The translations under genes and the position numbers were made by a program. The notes below the pieces were generated by a model that worked only from the letters and a program-made list of their open reading frames with translations, did not search any database and was not told the DNA's origin. 64,000 bases of DNA from an uncultured Chloroflexia bacterium (lineage in GTDB: Bacteria > Chloroflexota > Dehalococcoidia > UBA2979), in contig CAVSIV010000001.1 of assembly GCA_963728205.1 (NCBI GenBank), positions 1,184,001-1,248,000 on the forward strand. Reading direction: 5' to 3'. Shown piece after piece: positions 47,839 through 55,320 of this stretch (position 1 is its first letter; each line of letters begins with the position of its first letter).

Positions 47839-49197
47839 TCAGGCCGAGGTGTCGCCCTCGGGCTCGCCCTCCGCGTCGACGGCGACCTGGTCCTCGGCGG
47901 CCTCCGCATCAGCATCTGCGGCGTCGGTGGACGAGGTGACTGCCTCGCTCAGGTCGATCCGCTCACCGGCGGTGTCGGTGACGACGGCCGTGTCGAGAAC
48001 GGCCGCGAGCGCCTTGCGCCGGGCCACCTCGGCGACCATGGACGGGACCTGCCCCTGCTCGTCGATGAGCTGGGCGAACTGGTTCGGGTCCATGCCGTAC
48101 TGCTGGGCGCTCATGACGAGGTACTCGATGAGCTCGGTCTGCTCGACCGAGACCTCGAACTTCTCGACGAGGGCATCGAGGAGGAACTGGGCGCGCAGCG
48201 CCTGCCGGGTGTTCTCGTCGACCTCGGCCCGGTGCTCGTCGTCCTCGAGGCGGTCCTCGCCCTCGAGGTGGCTGTGCACCTCGGCCTCGACGATCCCGTC
48301 GGGCACCGGGATCTCGGTGGTCGCGAGGAGGTGCTCGAGCACCTTGTCCCGGGCCTGGAGGGCCTGCCCACGCTTCTTGGCCTCGGCCACCTGACGGGCA
48401 ACGTCGGCCCGCAGCTCGGGGAGGGTGTCGAACTCCGACGCGAGCTGGGCGAAGTCGTCGTCGAGAGCGGGGAGCTCACGGACCTTGACCGAGCCGACGG
48501 TCACGGTGCAGTCGGCGTTCGTGCCCTCGTGGTCACCACCGGCGAGCGGGGCGACGAACTCCTTGGTCTCGCCGGCGCTCATCCCGACGAGGGCGTCGTC
48601 CATCCCCTCGAGCATGGTCCCGGAGCCGACCTCGTAGGAGACGCCGGAGACGGAGTCGATCTCGTCGCCGTCGATCGCCGCCGAGAGGTCGATGGAGACG
48701 AAGTCGCCGGTCTCGACGGGACGCTCGACTCCGGTCAGGGTCCCGAACCGCTCGCGCAGGTCGGTGAGCCGCTCGTCGATGTCCTCGTCCGTCGCCTCGA
48801 CGGCGTCGACCGTCACGGCGATGCCAGCGGTCTCGGGGAGGGTGATCTCGGGTCGGACGTCGGTCTCGACGGTGAACTCGAGCTCCTGGCCGTCCTCGAG
48901 CGGAACGGCCGTGACGTCGACCTCGGGGTTGCCGATGGCCCGGATGCCCTCGGTGTCGACGGCCTGGCCGAAGAATCGCGGCAGGGCGGCGTTGACGGCC
49001 TCCTGGACGACAGCCCCGCGACCGACGCGCTGGTCGATGATGCGGGTCGGCACGTGGCCCCGGCGGAAGCCCGGGACCTGGATCTGCCCCCCGATCGTCG
49101 TGTACGCCGCGTCGAGGTCGGCCTTGAGCTCGTCGAACGGCACCTCGACATGGAGCTTGACCCGGGTCGGGCTGAGGGTCTCGACGGCACTCTTCAC
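47839..49197 (-). CDS. tig: trigger factor
   Basis: KSAVETLSPTRVKL and VPGFRRGHVP. Confidence 0.95.
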   Translation of the reverse strand: MKSAVETLSPTRVKLHVEVPFDELKADLDAAYTTIGGQIQVPGFRRGHVPTRIIDQRVGRGAVVQEAVNAALPRFFGQAVDTEGIRAIGNPEVDVTAVPLEDGQELEFTVETDVRPEITLPETAGIAVTVDAVEATDEDIDERLTDLRERFGTLTGVERPVETGDFVSIDLSAAIDGDEIDSVSGVSYEVGSGTMLEGMDDALVGMSAGETKEFVAPLAGGDHEGTNADCTVTVGSVKVRELPALDDDFAQLASEFDTLPELRADVARQVAEAKKRGQALQARDKVLEHLLATTEIPVPDGIVEAEVHSHLEGEDRLEDDEHRAEVDENTRQALRAQFLLDALVEKFEVSVEQTELIEYLVMSAQQYGMDPNQFAQLIDEQGQVPSMVAEVARRKALAAVLDTAVVTDTAGERIDLSEAVTSSTDAADADAEAAEDQVAVDAEGEPEGDTSA

Positions 49198-49381
49198 TTC
49201 AGGCACTCCGAACTGGCGGTTGGGGTCGGTCTGGGGTTCGGTCCGGCCACCGCGACCCGGGCCGGCCGGTGACGAGGGTCCCGGCGCGGCCGGCATACCG
49301 GACCTGGGCAGGCACCGGCGCGCTGGCGTGCGACGCGGGAACCATGCTAGCGGGCGGGCCGCCCGAGGCCGAATCCCTCGT

Positions 49382-49849
49382 CTACCTCGCCGTCGGAGCC
49401 CAGCCGCCGTCCAGCCGGGCGGGCGGGTGGGTGCGCCGAGAACGGGCCCGCCCCCATGCACCCACGATGAGGAGGACGACCGCGGCGAGCGGCCAGATGC
49501 CGACGAAGCCGAGGTCGATCCAGCGGGTCACCTCGTTGATCCGACCCTCTCCGGGCCGGGCCGGGTCGACGAAGACCGTCGTCGGGACGGCAGTGGTGTC
49601 GGTGACACTCTGCTGGGGGTTGACGATCGTGTACTGGATGCCGTCCACCGAGTAGTAGACGAGACCGCGCACCGATGAGCCCTGGATCTGCCGTCCGGTG
49701 AGGAAGACCGTGTCCACGGGCGACTGGAGCTCGAGCAGCAGGGCGAGGACTCCGACGACGAGAAGGACCAGAGCACCGATGCCGACCGGTCGAGAGACCA
49801 TGCCTCGGACGACCATGCCTCGGACGATACGACGCGCCGCTGGGAGCAC
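49382..49849 (-). CDS. hypothetical two-TM membrane protein
   Basis: N- and C-terminal hydrophobic helices around a YSVDGIQYT beta region; start uncertain. Confidence 0.5.
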   Translation of the reverse strand: MLPAARRIVRGMVVRGMVSRPVGIGALVLLVVGVLALLLELQSPVDTVFLTGRQIQGSSVRGLVYYSVDGIQYTIVNPQQSVTDTTAVPTTVFVDPARPGEGRINEVTRWIDLGFVGIWPLAAVVLLIVGAWGRARSRRTHPPARLDGGWAPTAR

Positions 49850-49899: not shown

Positions 49900-50451
49900 G
49901 TGTCCGGTATGCCGTCCCCCGAGCGTCCGACCGGCACCGTGACCCCGCTGCAGTCCTTCCGGGTCACCATCGGGTCGGTCATGTCCGGGCTCGTCATCAT
50001 GGCCGTGGTGTTCACCGCCGTCCTCGGCACGGCGGTGCCGCCGCTGTGGTGGCTGGTCGTCCCCCTCGTGCTGGGCGTCCTGGCCGAGAGCGCCATCACG
50101 ACGGCCGGCTATCGGGTGGTGCCGATCCCGCCCGGCGCCGCACCCGAGGAGGCCGCCGGTCCGGCCAGGATCCGCTTCCAGCGAAGCGCCGTGGTCCGGA
50201 TGGCCATCGGTGAGTCCGTCGCGATCGTCTCGATCGTCCTGTCCTTCCTCAGCCGGCCGCAGAGTGTCCTCACCTACCTCGTCGGGACGGTGGTCTCACT
50301 GGTCCTCCTGGGGCGGCACGTCTGGCCCAGCGCGGGGATGATCGACCGGACCGAGCGAGCCCTCGACGCGTCGGGCGGTCGATCGCATCTCGCCGACGTG
50401 CTCGCCGGTCGCGAGCCTGGGTCGAGCGCCCCGGGCTACGCGCAGCTCTAG
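49900..50451 (+). CDS. hypothetical membrane protein
   Basis: Four hydrophobic helices; coherent codon usage. Confidence 0.6.
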   Translation: MSGMPSPERPTGTVTPLQSFRVTIGSVMSGLVIMAVVFTAVLGTAVPPLWWLVVPLVLGVLAESAITTAGYRVVPIPPGAAPEEAAGPARIRFQRSAVVRMAIGESVAIVSIVLSFLSRPQSVLTYLVGTVVSLVLLGRHVWPSAGMIDRTERALDASGGRSHLADVLAGREPGSSAPGYAQL

Positions 50452-50469
50452 CCCGTCGCCGGCCGAGGG

Positions 50470-50725
50470 TCAGGCCGACTGCTCTGGGTCGAGGCGCTCG
50501 AGGATCCACGAACGGACGAGCGTCGAGGCCGGCAGGCCGGCGGCTCGTCGGCGACCTGCTGGACCCGGGCGTACTCCTCCGAGCTGGAGCCGAACCGGGT
50601 CACGCGCGGGAGCGGTCACGGTTCGGCCTGGTGAACCGAGCGCCCTCCGGATAGGGGTGGTCCTTAGTCTGCTCGGACTCCCGACGGAGCCGGTCGGCCA
50701 GCTCAGGGTCGATCGTCTTGGCCAT
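50470..50725 (-). CDS. CopG/RHH-like antitoxin (frameshifted)
   Basis: MAKTIDPEL...SEEYARVQQVA..GLPASTLVRSWILERL; GAAGGGAG RBS. Confidence 0.6.
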
Positions 50726-51032
50726 CGTCACTCCCTTCTGTGTAATCGGGAAGGTCGTGCCCCGAGGCCGGCCAGGCGTTGAGGCCATGGAGGTCGCCGT
50801 CGAGGTCGCGGTAGGCGGTGACGACGAGAACCCGTCCGGCGCTCGTCGACTCTCCGATGAAACGTGAAGCCCCGATCCGGGACTTGGCATCTGGCTCGAA
50901 CGCCACCAGGTCCGGGTCCGACAGCACCTCCTCGGTCCACTCGGGTTGGATGTTGATTCCGCCGGGGCAGCGGTCTGCTCTGCTTCGGATGTAGGTCGAG
51001 GAGACTTCATCCCAGTAGATCGGACCTGGCAT
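50703..51032 (-). CDS. BrnT-like toxin
   Basis: IYWDE...EEVLSDP...RFIGES...VLVV...NAWPA, upstream of and overlapping the antitoxin. Confidence 0.55.
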   Translation of the reverse strand: MPGPIYWDEVSSTYIRSRADRCPGGINIQPEWTEEVLSDPDLVAFEPDAKSRIGASRFIGESTSAGRVLVVTAYRDLDGDLHGLNAWPASGHDLPDYTEGSDDGQDDRP

Positions 51033-51172
51033 GGCTCACCGAATTACGCCGTAGTACGTCCAGGAGGTTGGACGCGTGCGCCGTAGCTCCGGAGTCCGTT
51101 ACCGCACGGATCGCGGCATGGTCGGACGCCAGCCCCGACAACGGTCGGGTGGAAGATCGGATGCGGTCGCGC

Positions 51173-51517
51173 TCAGCCGGGCGCCGGGCGCTCGGCGTCG
51201 ACCGGGAGGCCCGCGATGCCGGTTGCGGTCACCAGGCGCAGTCGCTGGACGTCGACGCTCGTGACGTAGTCGTCAACGCGGTCGAGGAAGTACCGGGTCG
51301 TGGTCTGCGACTCGTGCTCGGCCAGGGCATCTTCGCTCGTGTAGAGCTCGTAGAAGATGCGGACGTCGGGCTCACCAGCGAGCGCGTGCACCGCGTAGGC
51401 CAACGTGCGGGGCTCGTGGGCGGCGATCCCCGCCACCGTGTCGCGCATCAACGCGTCGAACGCCTCGGCTCGCCCGGGCCTGAGCGCGAATCGGACCACC
51501 AAGCCGAACTGGGACAT
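51173..51517 (-). CDS. ABM/quinol monooxygenase family protein
   Basis: VRFALRPG, EPRTLAY and FYELY...AEH; GAGGAG RBS. Confidence 0.85.
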   Translation of the reverse strand: MSQFGLVVRFALRPGRAEAFDALMRDTVAGIAAHEPRTLAYAVHALAGEPDVRIFYELYTSEDALAEHESQTTTRYFLDRVDDYVTSVDVQRLRLVTATGIAGLPVDAERPAPG

Positions 51518-52451
51518 CTGCTCCTCCTCGGTACGAGCAGACCCTCCCACGTCGGGGACTCCGGCACGGTGAGAATGGAGGCCGCCGCGCCGTCCAGGTC
51601 GGCACCCCGCGAGGCCGAACATCCCCGGCGAGGACCGAGGTCGGCAGTCGCGCGGCGCCGCCCCTCAGGTTCGGCACGCCGAAGCGCACCTACGTTCAGC
51701 CGTCCAAGGCAACTCCCGCCTAGCGCCGGGTCAACCCTGCGCGAGTGGAGATCAGCGCTGAGAACACCCGCGCGATCCGCGGCATAAGAGGACGCTAGCG
51801 CCGACAGCGGCATGACCGTGCAACGGTATGCCGCCATGCCGGACAGCGGCATTTGGGACGTTCGGTGCGTCCGCAACCGATGCCCGATCTACCGTCCGGG
51901 GCGGGGCCTCGGTCCTATCGTGGTTCCGGACTCGACTCCCAGCAACGCGGCGCCAGCGGTTCGGCGCCGCGAGAGGTCGATGACGAGCCGAGGGCCCGGA
52001 GGTGGGGACGGCCGGCTGGAACACTCGGGTCGTGGACACGAGCGAGTGCCAAGACTGCGGCCACAGCCTCTCGGCTCACGGACCTGTCGCGTGCGCGGTC
52101 TGCTCGGCGGAGGAAAGTCGCGGAGAGCGAGCCATCGGCCACGTCTGTGGACTGACCCCCATCGATCCGACCCGTCCAAGTGATGAGCCGCGACGAGCAG
52201 ACGGTTGCCATGTTCCTGTCCTTGCAGCGGCAATGGGGCCTGAATCTCGTGGTCATGGTTGCCTGTGCCGCCGTGTCGGGCTGCTCTACCTCTTCGATCC
52301 CGACCTCTCGTCCACCTGGTCTCGCGCAGCAGCGATCATCGTCCTTGTTGCTGGTCTTCTCGTCCTCACTGTGGCGACCGCTCGCTCACTCATCGAGCAG
52401 GGTGCAACATCAGTAGTGACACACCTCAACACTCGATTAGGGGTGAGTGTG

Positions 52452-53129
52452 ATGAAGGTGCCCACCAAAGGACGGGCGTTGCTGAGCAGCGTGGTCGTCG
52501 TGCTGGCTGTGGCCACGGGGTGCTCGGCCGAGCCTGGAGTTTCCGATGACTACCAACGCCTCGAGCAGCAATATTTCGAAGCGCAGGAGGAGGTCGCAGG
52601 GCTCGAGCAGGCGCTCGCCGCTTCGGCGGGCGTCGAGTTCACCGCCCTGCCCAAGAACGTCGTCAAGGTCTACGGCGAGTACGCAGGATGTCTACCGAGG
52701 GTGCATGGGGAGGAGTCCCCAGACGGGATCAAGGTCTACAGCGGCGGGTTCTCGTGCCCGGGTGTGAGGTACTCGGATCCACGCCTCAACGGTGATGTGG
52801 AGTTGACGCTGATCGGGGCGCGCTATGTCGACTACCTGCCGAACTCGAACATCCCCGAGACCGCGCGCTTCGAGTTCACCGCCGTGCTGACCACCAATGA
52901 CGGTGAGCGGTGGAGTGGCGATGGATTCGGTGTCGACCTGTACGACGGCGAAGGAAAGATCCACACCGTGTACTACAACGAGCTCGCGGGCAAGGGCAAG
53001 TATGACGGGTTGGTCTATCGCGAGTGGGCGATGCAGCAGCCCAGGGTGTACGACGGCACCGCGACAACGCTCTACGACGGGTATTTCGCCTCGGGGTGGA
53101 TCGAGCAGATCCCGTCGACAGGTTCCTGA
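52452..53129 (+). CDS. lipoprotein, hypothetical
   Basis: Lipobox VATGC followed by a short coiled coil; lower GC. Confidence 0.65.
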   Translation: MKVPTKGRALLSSVVVVLAVATGCSAEPGVSDDYQRLEQQYFEAQEEVAGLEQALAASAGVEFTALPKNVVKVYGEYAGCLPRVHGEESPDGIKVYSGGFSCPGVRYSDPRLNGDVELTLIGARYVDYLPNSNIPETARFEFTAVLTTNDGERWSGDGFGVDLYDGEGKIHTVYYNELAGKGKYDGLVYREWAMQQPRVYDGTATTLYDGYFASGWIEQIPSTGS

Positions 53130-53239
53130 CCCCAGATCCGGGTGGCGCGTGGATAGCAGGGCCGGTGATGTCACCGTCGGCGACCCCGGGGCAAGGTCCG
53201 GTTCGGAGTGCGGGCTGCCGGTGGAGGTGGGGTCTGGTG

Positions 53240-53431
53240 GTGGTCGCGCTTCCCACCCCTGAGGATCTGGCCGAGATCCTGGCCTGTTCCCCGCAGGTGG
53301 TGGACACGGCCGCGGGGCCGATGGAGTATGCCGAGGCAGGGGAGGGCTCACCGTTGCTGTTCACCCACGGCGACATGAGCGCGCACATCGATTTGGCTTC
53401 GGCCTGCGGTCTGGGTGCAGCAAAGGCCTGA
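53240..53431 (+). pseudogene. alpha/beta hydrolase N-terminal fragment
   Basis: VDTAAGPMEYAEAGEGSPLLFTHG, then an early stop. Confidence 0.45.
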
Positions 53432-53715
53432 GCGTGGTCGATGTGAGGACAGTGCAGCCGCGGCATCCGTGGGAGCTCGCCTTACCCTCGTATCGACTCA
53501 TCTCCGGAGCGCTGGCGCTTGGAAGGCCTCTGGGTGTGCGGTCTGTTCTCGAACGTCGAGGTGGTGACGACGAGGAGACTGTCGTGGCTCGCTACAACGA
53601 TCTGATGGCGGTCATTCAGGGAGTCCTCCTGGGTCACGGACGATGTCCTAGCCCGCCTGCGCACGCTGGAAGCCGAAGATCCAGCGGCGGGCCGCCGCTG
53701 TGGGAGTCGGTGGTG

Positions 53716-54056
53716 ATGAGTAGCGGGGCCGCTGACGATGAACGGGTGATCGAGGCCTCACGCCGAGTTTGGGAAACCCTCGGACCGAACGCCTACGCAG
53801 TGCAGTTCAAGGCTCGCCCGCAGACCTGGCGAGGGTTTGTCGAGGGCCGCGGTTGGCTGGTGCTTGGCATGGCTGGCCTCGTGGTGATCGCGATCTTGGC
53901 GGATGAGGTCAACCAGCGATGGGGCTGGTACTGGCTCTTGGTGTTCCCTTGTTCATCGCGTGGCCGGCGCTGCTCTACATCGCCTTCAGGCGCAGGTATC
54001 GCGATCTTGAAGCGCGGGGTGGCAAGGAGCTTCCGCACCTGAACCCCCTGACTCAT
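53716..54056 (+). CDS. small membrane protein (frameshifted), hypothetical
   Basis: Two hydrophobic helices split across frames near 53945. Confidence 0.35.
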
Positions 54057-54072
54057 CGCGGCATGGTCGGAC

Positions 54073-54168
54073 GAGGCGCACCGCCTGTCGGTGCTTGTGG
54101 CGGCCGCTGACCGCGCGAGTGACGACATGGAGTTCGTCGAGGCCGTCTCCGACGACTGGCCCGAATGA
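54073..54168 (+). pseudogene. C-terminal remnant of a DUF3018/MazE-like antitoxin
   Basis: EAHRLSVLVAAADRASDDMEFVEAVSDDWPE*, ATGA-coupled to the toxin, with no N-terminus. Confidence 0.55.
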
Positions 54169-54491
54169 GACGCGGCGACATCATCACCGTGGCCGATGGC
54201 GTCTATGCGAACAAGCCTCGGCCGGCGTTGATCGTCCAGGACGACCGGTTCGACGCGAGCGCGTCGCTGACCGTGTGCCCCTTCACGAGCACGGAGACCG
54301 ACGCGCCGCTGCTGCGGGTGCCGGTCACCGCTGACGAAGGGAACGGCTTGGACCAGGACGGCTTCTTGATGGTCGACAAGATCACCACGGTGCGCAGGGG
54401 CAATGCCCACGCAGTGATCGGGAGGCTGGAGGCCGCGACGTTGGTCGAGTTCGAGAGGCGCCTCCTCGTCTTCCTCGGCTTCGGCGACTGA
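54165..54491 (+). CDS. PemK/MazF family toxin
   Basis: MRRGDI...KPRPALIVQ...VCPFTS...LMVDKITTV. Confidence 0.9.
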   Translation: MRRGDIITVADGVYANKPRPALIVQDDRFDASASLTVCPFTSTETDAPLLRVPVTADEGNGLDQDGFLMVDKITTVRRGNAHAVIGRLEAATLVEFERRLLVFLGFGD

Positions 54492-54550
54492 ACGCACCGC
54501 TCCGCGGCATGGTCGGACGCTAGCGCCGACAGCGGCAAATCAGGAGCGAG

Positions 54551-54800
54551 TCAGGCGCTGGCTTCCCCATCCGTCGTAGTCGCGGCCTGGCCACTGCTGG
54601 GCGACGCCTTCGACGAACACCCGAGCATCGCGTACCGCTTCTGGGCTCGTAACCGCGCCGTGCCGCTCAGCGACGACGACCCACTCGGGTCCACCTGTCG
54701 CAAGAACTCTGCAACGTCCTGCAGGTCCCACCCCGCAGCCTCCACGACCTCAGCTGCTCCGCGCGCGCCCGCCTCGTCGGCGAAGGACAGGTAGTGCGCG
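54551..54800 (-). pseudogene. RraB-like domain fragment
   Basis: HYLSFADEAGA...WVVVA...DYDGWG, split across frames. Confidence 0.45.
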
Positions 54801-55007
54801 CGGCGCGGATCGACCGGCACGCCACCGATGATCGGTCCCGGGTCCTCGCCGACCGCCTCGACGCCCTCGTCCGCGAGCTGAGCCGAGGCATGGAGCAGCG
54901 GCTGGCACCGAACCCCTATCGCTGACAGATCGCACGCGACGGGCTCAGGCGGTGGGTGGCGGAGAGGCATCAGGGGTCCGGCAGGCCTCTGACCTGCGGT
55001 GCTGCGA

Positions 55008-55081
55008 TGGAGCGGGTGACGGGAATCGAACCCGCATGGCCAGCTTGGAAGGCTGGGGCTCTGCCATTGAGCTACACCCGC
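55008..55081 (-). tRNA. tRNA-Gly(TCC)
   Basis: GCGGGTGTAGCTCAATGG...CCAGC-CTTCCAA-GCTGG...GGTTCGATTCCCGTCACCCGCTCCA cloverleaf. Confidence 0.97.
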
Positions 55082-55201
55082 GTGCTCCCCTCCACCGGCG
55101 ACCGTCGTCGGCGGGCCGAGAGCAGGCGCTAGCCTAGTGGCCGCTGTCGCGGGACCCGAAATCCTCCCCGCACCGGGCGTATGCCGGGTGTCCGGGCGCC
55201 G

Positions 55202-55278
55202 CGGGGTATGGCGCAGTTTGGTAGCGCGTCCGCTTTGGGAGCGGAAGGCCGCCGGTTCAAATCCGGCTACCCCGACCA
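55202..55278 (+). tRNA. tRNA-Pro(TGG)
   Basis: CGGGGTATGGCGCAGTTTGG...TCCGC-TTTGGGA-GCGGA...GGTTCAAATCC...CCCCGACCA. Confidence 0.97.
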
Positions 55279-55320
55279 TCCCTGCCCACCCGCGCCCGCG
55301 CCCTCCGCGCGGAGGAACGC

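Follow-up and report, generated by a model that had tools for sequence, protein, structure and literature searches.

What assembled the row of small, unrelated genes that lies next to a tRNA-Gly gene in the genome of an uncultured bacterium, and what is the short repeat that recurs between them? The genes form an island at positions 50452–55007 of a 64,000-nucleotide stretch of DNA (the window; GenBank assembly GCA_963728205.1, contig CAVSIV010000001.1, forward-strand positions 1,184,001–1,248,000). An earlier note, made from the sequence alone, described the island as cassette-like and suggested that its repeats are recombination sites of an integron-like or dif-module-like capture system acting in trans. 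Part of that suggestion stands: the repeats border discrete, horizontally moving units, one of which, the unit of an antibiotic biosynthesis monooxygenase-like (ABM) gene, occurs alone in four metagenome studies, and no recombinase lies nearby. Membership of either family does not stand, since IntI and attC boxes are missing and the sites are unlike dif. On balance, the repeats are probably junction or recombination sites of mobile gene units.

The island contains three full copies of the repeat, R1 (51113–51146), R2 (51779–51812) and R3 (54504–54537), and one half copy, H (54055–54073), all on the + strand; the earlier note had also seen three copies and a half copy in one orientation. R3 is the canonical unit followed by a trailing GCGGCA, an exact 34-mer that scores 53.8 bits (E 9e-16) in a sequence-only site model built from 22 aligned copies; it begins 12 nt past the stop codon of pemK (11 by the earlier numbering). 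R1 has a canonical left part and a variant right part (..CCAGCCCCGACA ACGGTC; 44.5 bits, E 7e-13), and R2 has a canonical right part with the left arm replaced (GCGGCATAAGAGGACGC; 47.1 bits, E 1e-13). The 19 nt of H (ATCGCGGCATGGTCGGACG; 17.9 bits, E 1.4e-4) are identical to the left 19 nt of R1 and are joined to the interior of an antitoxin gene. After these four, the next best match to the model in the 64-kb window reaches 9 bits. A scan of all 4.13 Mb of the genome, allowing up to 8 mismatches, finds the 34-mer at R1–R3 only; exact copies of the left 16-mer are confined to R1, H and R3. The repeat shares with REP (repetitive extragenic palindrome), REPIN-RAYT and miniature inverted-repeat transposable element (MITE) families the character of a short, partly palindromic intergenic sequence, and the earlier note had allowed for a generic repeat of this kind scattered beside core genes. 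That possibility is ruled out by the confinement of 3.5 copies to one 3.4-kb span of 4.1 Mb, together with the 1–3 copies in other carriers; unlike those families, the site also lacks a stable hairpin.

The same site recurs far outside this genome. Its consensus is GCGGCATGGTCGGACGCyAGCkCCGACA followed by GCGGCA; of the 22 aligned copies, 15 have the trailing hexamer unchanged and six others have it with at most one mismatch. An exact scan with the pattern GCGGCAT-N4-GGACGC-N-AGC-N-CCGACA, in which the trailing GCGGCA is not required, recovered 12 units in nine other genomes, all Actinomycetota and from several orders: Ornithinicoccus halotolerans, Tessaracoccus massiliensis, a Pseudonocardiales metagenome-assembled genome (MAG), a Jatrophihabitans MAG and five uncultured MAGs. 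A metagenome collection gave ten matching loci, eight of them credible; L046 and L050 were dropped, the match lying inside a Mur ligase gene with the trailing core absent. Copies number one to five per genome or metagenome contig (1–3 per genome in the five carriers checked) and are co-oriented. Loci L015, L020 and L044 hold 34-mers identical to R3, and L045 holds two tandem units. Tandem 28-nt units occur in L014 (two), L044 (3.5 and 2.3) and, in greater number, L045; a reading of the site as − strand coding sequence (MPLSALASDHAA) was ruled out, because these tandem units break the frame. With the site model, a second locus with two sites came to light in Ornithinicoccus, as did partial sites in L038. 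Even so, few genomes carry the site: in a sample of 400 others from the host's order, 2 matched (up to 3 mismatches; controls 0), and among 120 other genomes of the Tessaracoccus family 13 matched (up to 2 mismatches) against 4 control matches, with only L087, L083 and L091 above 11 bits in the site model. Viral contigs gave no site match, and PLSDB plasmids (blastn, E up to 10) gave weak matches only, the best of them, in a Mycolicibacterium plasmid, inside a coding sequence. No Rfam family matches the site, and a literature search found no published description of it, 10–11-mers returning primers and unrelated papers.

The restriction to Actinomycetota accords with the kinship of the host, whose genome (G000; 4.13 Mb in 6 contigs, 72.5% GC, 89% complete) was deposited as Chloroflexota. 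The trigger factor (Tig) encoded in the window (47839–49461) is actinobacterial: its identity to the Tig of Ornithinicoccus is 63%, to those of eight genomes of the Ornithinicoccus order 74–78%, and to those of the 60 genomes initially assigned as Chloroflexota-type relatives only 26–30%. At this identity the 60 genomes are uninformative on kin, and the comparison was therefore moved to the Ornithinicoccus order; a 20-mer scan of the 60 gave 3 matches with unrelated flanks, and the controls gave 5. All six contigs have a common tetranucleotide profile (pairwise r ≥ 0.98), with a single tig gene. Taken together, Tig, synteny and the site carriers point to a place in the actinobacterial order of Ornithinicoccus rather than in Chloroflexota.

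The genes that neighbour the sites are small and of accessory function, among them two GNATs, an Imm5-like gene, MST/DinB, Glyoxalase_6, cupins, TetR, PIN/FitA and YoeB. In Tessaracoccus massiliensis, three copies within 4.3 kb, all in + orientation, delimit a 648-nt interval that holds an MST/DinB gene alone and a next unit that holds a Glyoxalase_6 gene. Within the window one such unit is the ABM cassette (51142–51785), which lies between R1 and R2 and contains the ABM gene (51173–51517, − strand; Pfam PF03992, E 2.8e-7), with its stop codon 26 nt from R1.

Read evidence came as assembled contigs from four runs of four unrelated metagenome studies (soil, sediment, peat and one unlabelled), each run covering at most 12% of the island. 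The R1–R2 interval was found in all four, as contigs of 608 nt (51164–51769), 617 nt (51155–51769), 763 nt (51142–51783) and 689 nt (51113–51785) with 98–99% identity and 6–13 differences, while the flanking island DNA has a depth near zero in the same runs. The ABM unit thus occurs as a discrete cassette in other contexts. Contigs from runs X3 and X4 carry unlike sequence up to 51141 and match the window from 51142, the second core of R1. A further divergence point lies at 53512/53513, where the match of contigs from X1 and X4 starts exactly at 53513. This is beside a + strand stretch at 53460–53518 (GCGGCATCCGTGGGAGC .. CTCATCTCCGGAGCG followed by CTGGCG; a weak repeat family, D2, at 74% identity) that we infer to be a degenerate junction. 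Bins over the sites show depth spikes of up to 2106 with many unlike loose ends, which indicates that the site occurs in many different surroundings in these soil, sediment and peat samples; the maximum is in peat run X6, in bin 51749–51909 (R2 and an adjoining 44-nt unit), whose flanks are likewise many and unlike. At 90% identity the ABM protein clusters into a group of 66 members, found on more than 100 contigs that come from four sources, whereas PemK, a 109-residue open reading frame (ORF), a lipoprotein-like ORF and the core gene trmB form singleton clusters. Two apparent joints (51814 to 54503, and 54527 back to 54504) proved to be tandem units and not deletion joints.

How might such units be joined? 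The 28-nt unit parses as GCGGCA-TGGTCGGACGC-yA-GCkCCGACA, after which comes a second GCGGCA. In a permuted frame, yAGCkCCGACA/GCGGCA/TGGTCGGACGC, it presents two imperfectly inverted arms of about 11 nt on either side of a 6-nt asymmetric core, which is how a tyrosine-recombinase core site is laid out. The usual junction would then be two cores sharing one palindrome, and tandem units rows of complete sites. An array of at least five small genes in L038, read on the − strand of that locus, has single-core junctions of the form ..CTCATCGGCACGATCG/GCGGCA/.., in which a stop codon is followed by CTCATCGGCACGATCG, GCGGCA and a variable AGAGTGGACGC-like arm. The half copy of the window, H, follows this pattern with tga-CTCATC-GCGGCA.

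From this anatomy a mechanism can be sketched. The island would consist of about six small mobile gene units, inserted on the 3′ side of tRNA-Gly as an array that is now decayed, and joined at the repeat by site-specific recombination through an enzyme encoded elsewhere. That enzyme may be a Xer-type tyrosine recombinase acting in trans. Strand exchange or insertion would take place in or at the GCGGCA core, with each gene unit held between two cores and tandem units serving as rows of empty sites; it is the two contig divergence points (51141/51142 and 53512/53513) that lead us to locate the exchange there. At H, GCGGCATGGTCGGACG is joined to the interior of the antitoxin gene, and this half copy may be the scar of an illegitimate event. 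The involvement of a tyrosine recombinase and the crossover in the core are details that we advance only tentatively and with clearly less confidence than the junction role itself.

As to the enzyme, the earlier observation that no integrase is present extends to the whole contig of the window (C1), on which PF00589 has no match. Genome-wide, G000 has four matches: XerD (340.8 bits, above the cut-off), a XerC-like protein (289.7 bits, below it), a spare Xer-like protein on contig C6 and one fragment in a 112-aa frame. IntI was not found in this 89% complete genome, the three intact proteins scoring 57–122 bits on TIGR02249 against a cut-off of 265. Its only serine recombinase (C1:1143122–1143568, 616-aa frame) is of the large type and sits beyond the window, about 92 kb away from the island; Ornithinicoccus has none. 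A tyrosine recombinase does stand beside one array, that of L038, which is abutted by two Xer-like genes with a TrwC relaxase gene on its other side, but beside no other array examined, and no HUH enzyme is consistently linked to the sites. A site match near a XerC-like gene (L053 2741–2756) lies inside a coding region and was set aside as chance. At L038 7395–7425 (− strand view), by the 3′ end of the second Xer-like gene, the sequence ..GACGTCCTCAAT TCGGCA TTATGTGGGTG.. combines a core-like hexamer with a TTATGT that resembles the XerD arm of dif; the combination could be due to chance. Tessaracoccus carries, in addition, a trio of adjacent tyrosine recombinase genes (329, 435 and 370 aa) in four identical copies (C14:286077–288440, C15:541266–543629, C15:579912–582275 and C16:704905–707268). 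These trios, none of them near the site array, resemble recombinase-in-trio elements.

Several observations weigh against recombination at these sites, or against the form proposed for it. The arms are inverted only in part, general junctions retain mainly GCGGCA-N5-GGACGY, the crossover point is deduced from two junctions, and the break in H falls midway through the palindrome and not in the core. A recombinase is linked to the site in only one of six carriers (G064, at L038, among G000 and G061–G065, surveyed with PF00589 genome-wide or at the locus). YR1, the one of the L038 pair that was searched, has no counterpart above 38% identity in five other genomes, and the closest relatives of the spare Xer-like protein of G000 in other carriers reach at most 32%. 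By tblastn, no cassette of the window stands beside a site in any other assembled locus compared, and a 79% identical ABM homologue in carrier G189 keeps only degenerate CCGAC-GCGG remnants. The arrays are short, with at most about six units. Short contigs that end at repeats are expected from any repeat in de Bruijn assembly, so contig ends alone are weak evidence; the informative part is the contrast in presence together with the two divergence points. Circular or excised forms and deletion joints were not seen among the assembled contigs, which come from runs that each hold at most 12% of the island and do not include the source sample.

Among other explanations, the one that survives best, although we hold it to be improbable, treats the site as the footprint or target of an insertion sequence (IS), or as a tiny inverted-repeat element, in which a 22-nt palindrome (TGGTCGG..CCGACA) is flanked by a 6-nt duplication of GCGGCA; the gene mosaic would then stem from IS activity and homologous exchange. 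The direct repeat of GCGGCA around the palindrome and the existence of tandem units fit this account, and transposase genes do lie close by: IS110 in L041 (36 nt from the site), IS21 in L019 and L034, ISL3 and IS110 in L039, and IS256 in L037, besides a DDE fragment. These genes nevertheless belong to five families, none of them common to several loci, and the site is present in one to five clustered copies per genome rather than dispersed. Moreover, 22 nt is too short for a transposon, and the shared sequence of the ABM unit begins outside the palindrome. A narrower relationship is that IS elements possibly target the site, much as IS1111 elements target attC sites. In L041 the IS110-family ORF (38–1336), whose start is the one 36 nt away, shows its Pfam domain from residue 66, and a non-coding end of about 200 nt possibly separates the site from the IS110 coding start. 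The IS21 genes istA/istB adjoin sites in L019 (2001–4025) and L034 (12151–15050).

Slightly less probable again is a hairpin-plus-nick site for an HUH enzyme (a relaxase, rolling-circle Rep or Y1 transposase), with the units between nick sites copied out and rejoined. This comes closest to the earlier idea that the repeat can fold into a hairpin with one unpaired A, and it would account for the shared orientation of copies in each array and for the 5-bp stem GTCGG/CCGAC before AGCGGCA. The folding does not bear the structure out. R3 does form the hairpin in its minimum-energy fold (−7.6 kcal/mol), but with a z score of −0.39 that 65 of 200 shuffles equal or better, and R1 and R2 fold otherwise, without it. 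The inner pair C21–K28 has a G in only 11 of 22 aligned copies, and changes in the left arm (R2, L021 and L049) are uncompensated, a weak test given that the search pattern fixed the right arm. As for the enzyme, the main site of L038 lies about 350 nt upstream of the TrwC relaxase gene, which is transcribed away from it, and TrwC is present in four of six carriers; it is absent from G000 and G065, no site lies at or upstream of TrwC in Tessaracoccus or Ornithinicoccus, and only in L038 does TrwC adjoin a site.

Unlikelier still is a functional motif that does not recombine, one that binds a protein or marks a transcript end and simply accompanies genes gained by horizontal transfer. Its attraction is that the motif is partly palindromic and that eight of the ten Pfam-supported gene ends within 60 nt of a site are 3′ ends, as expected of a terminator (ABM 26 nt, PemK 12, Imm5-like 15, MST/DinB 21, Glyoxalase_6 36, cupin 12, F420H2-reductase-like 57 and luciferase-like 39 nt from gene end to site). 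Genes on both strands approach the site, however, and it has neither a T-run nor a stable stem. Near-identical 34-mers stand beside unrelated genes across orders, no gene lies between tandem units, and the sequence common to different contexts begins and ends at the site.

Least of all do we credit that ordinary tRNA-targeting integrative elements built the island and left the repeats as att scars: the island abuts the 3′ end of tRNA-Gly and the slot varies in size among relatives, but the repeat has nothing in common with the tRNA, the contig has no integrase or remnant of one, and among ten other loci scanned seven have no tRNA while those of L034 (tRNA-Ala) and L038 (tRNA-Arg) are unrelated and 7–8 kb from the site. 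In L024, 49 nt (2582–2630) about 550 nt from the site are 86% identical to the tRNA-Gly of the window, although ARAGORN calls no tRNA there. No tRNA-like direct repeat was found in 50000–55300, and the motif TGACCTGCG, which the earlier note had marked just past the tRNA 3′ end, occurs at chance level (two occurrences in the window where 0.91 would be expected, a count attained by 25 of 100 shuffles).

The tRNA gene itself (tRNA-Gly(tcc), 55008–55081, − strand, called by ARAGORN and Rfam) is where the earlier note placed it, with its 3′ end toward the island, and marks one edge of a slot that begins at a conserved membrane-protein gene (49900–50451). Six true relatives share the order tig-(membrane gene)-[1.3–5.2 kb]-tRNA-Gly-tRNA-Pro-trmB-PP2C, and in their slots before tRNA-Gly the island genes, site copies and cassette-type repeats are all absent. 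Because the slot varies in length in relatives that lack the island genes, the island fills a naturally variable slot. Its filling is GC-poor (0.61–0.69 against 0.70–0.755 in the flanks), and the GC skew along contig C1 shows no clear terminus at the island.

With the repeats taken as junctions of mobile gene units, the array can be set against known systems. It resembles a cluster of attC sites lacking an integron-integrase (CALIN): a row of small, unrelated accessory and toxin–antitoxin (TA) genes, a conserved co-oriented site at each junction and mostly at gene 3′ ends, no adjoining recombinase, and units that occur singly in other contexts. An attC site is 55–140 nt long, with inverted R″-L″/L′-R′ boxes, a GTTRRRY box and a hairpin with extrahelical bases. 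The island sites have none of these features, being 28–34 nt long with direct, not inverted, repeats of GCGGCA and a fold no better than that of shuffles, and IntI is missing. Cury et al. 2016 (PMC4889954) describe CALIN as integron cassette arrays without integrase and report that all Actinobacteria genomes analysed there were without complete integrons.

Likeness to dif modules and to integrative mobile elements exploiting Xer (IMEX) lies in the 28-nt period, which parses 11-6-11, and in the cargo of TA and other small genes. These elements, which include CTX-type elements, use the XerC and XerD of the host in trans, and G000 encodes XerD, a XerC-like protein and the spare Xer-like protein. 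A dif site consists of a XerC arm, a 6-nt centre and a XerD arm of the form ..TTATGT.., and in the modules of Acinetobacter pdif sites alternate in orientation. The island sites, by contrast, are direct repeats at a chromosomal locus and lack the motif ATAA-N6-TTAT. The published Frankia dif (PMC3025954), CACGCCGATAATGCACATTATGTCAAGT, has only the hexamer CGCCGA in common with them. Of five site-bearing genomes checked, two have dif-like sites at other places (G064, TTCGCCGATAA TCGACA TTATGTCATTA; G065, ..TCCGATAA GCAACA TTATGTCAG), and identity of the site with dif is ruled out by these and by its unlikeness to actinobacterial dif. In the 89% complete G000, neither ATAA-N6-TTAT nor a Frankia-derived pattern with up to 3 mismatches revealed a canonical dif-like motif. 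The array works like a CALIN and is laid out like dif modules; it falls short of both in the sequence and enzyme features that define them. Islands anchored at tRNA genes by serial integration, such as SCC-type composite islands and tycheposons, share with it stacked units, direct-repeat junctions, a conserved anchor gene and a slot that varies among relatives. They differ in that the junction here is unrelated to the anchor gene, the sites of other carriers are not at tRNA genes, and no serine or tyrosine recombinase lies inside the island.

A wider proposal, which we regard as possible though doubtful, is that Actinomycetota have a gene-capture system of their own. Cassettes would move into and out of rows of 28-nt sites (11-nt arm, GCGGCA core, 11-nt arm) through a Xer-type recombinase in trans, possibly the housekeeping XerC/XerD or a spare Xer-like enzyme; tandem empty sites would be landing pads, and Actinobacteria from soil, peat and sediment, though they belong to different orders, would share cassettes such as the ABM unit through exchange. 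If the sites do recombine, genes would be captured in cassette fashion in a phylum for which integron tools report no such capture. Sites of 28–34 nt are short enough for direct searching, and the cultured carriers Tessaracoccus massiliensis SIT6 and Ornithinicoccus halotolerans EGI 80423 make recombination testable at the bench. The site also gives a handle on the spread of small accessory genes (TA pairs, glyoxalases, GNATs and monooxygenases) among distant soil Actinobacteria.

The remaining genes of the island are only partly as first labelled. Pfam agrees with ABM and PemK and, weakly, with a MazE-like antitoxin; the second TA pair, the lipoprotein, the hydrolase fragment and the RraB-like fragment have no Pfam match even at E 5. 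The pemK/mazF-type toxin gene (54165–54491, +; PF02452, E 3.7e-18) follows the 5′-truncated antitoxin remnant (54052–54167, +; PF11455, E 0.021), which covers only profile positions 31–65 of 65 and has no in-frame start codon upstream, so that the C-terminal half alone is left. The preceding unit (53513–54051, +) holds a membrane-protein-like ORF without a Pfam match. Contigs from two studies, X1 (window 53513–53987) and X4 (53513–54025), match it at about 95% identity with one extra C after 53943, and the ORF of the window is therefore frameshifted. Upstream, a 225-aa ORF (52452–53129, +) has a lipoprotein-like N-terminus (..LAVATGCSAE..). At the far end from the tRNA gene, the ORF list shows the 109-aa ORF (50703–51032) with a downstream 41-aa ORF (RHH_3 at E 0.19) and a 49-aa fragment, together spanning 50470–51032 on the − strand and a possible broken TA pair. 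The ORF that adjoins the tRNA gene (54551–54970, −) is the one earlier called RraB-like.

Directly after R2, the 44-nt unit (51806–51855, +) lies between two GCGGCA cores and forms a strong hairpin at 51807–51833 (GCGGCAT-G-ACCGT-GCA-ACGGT-ATGCCGC). The DNA fold of 51800–51860 reaches −19.1 kcal/mol, with a z score of −3.7 that none of 200 shuffles matches, and a partial match to the site model follows at 51842–51857. In peat run X6, loose ends fall before 51807 and behind 51841–51852, and the unit may belong to a separate, abundant repeat family.

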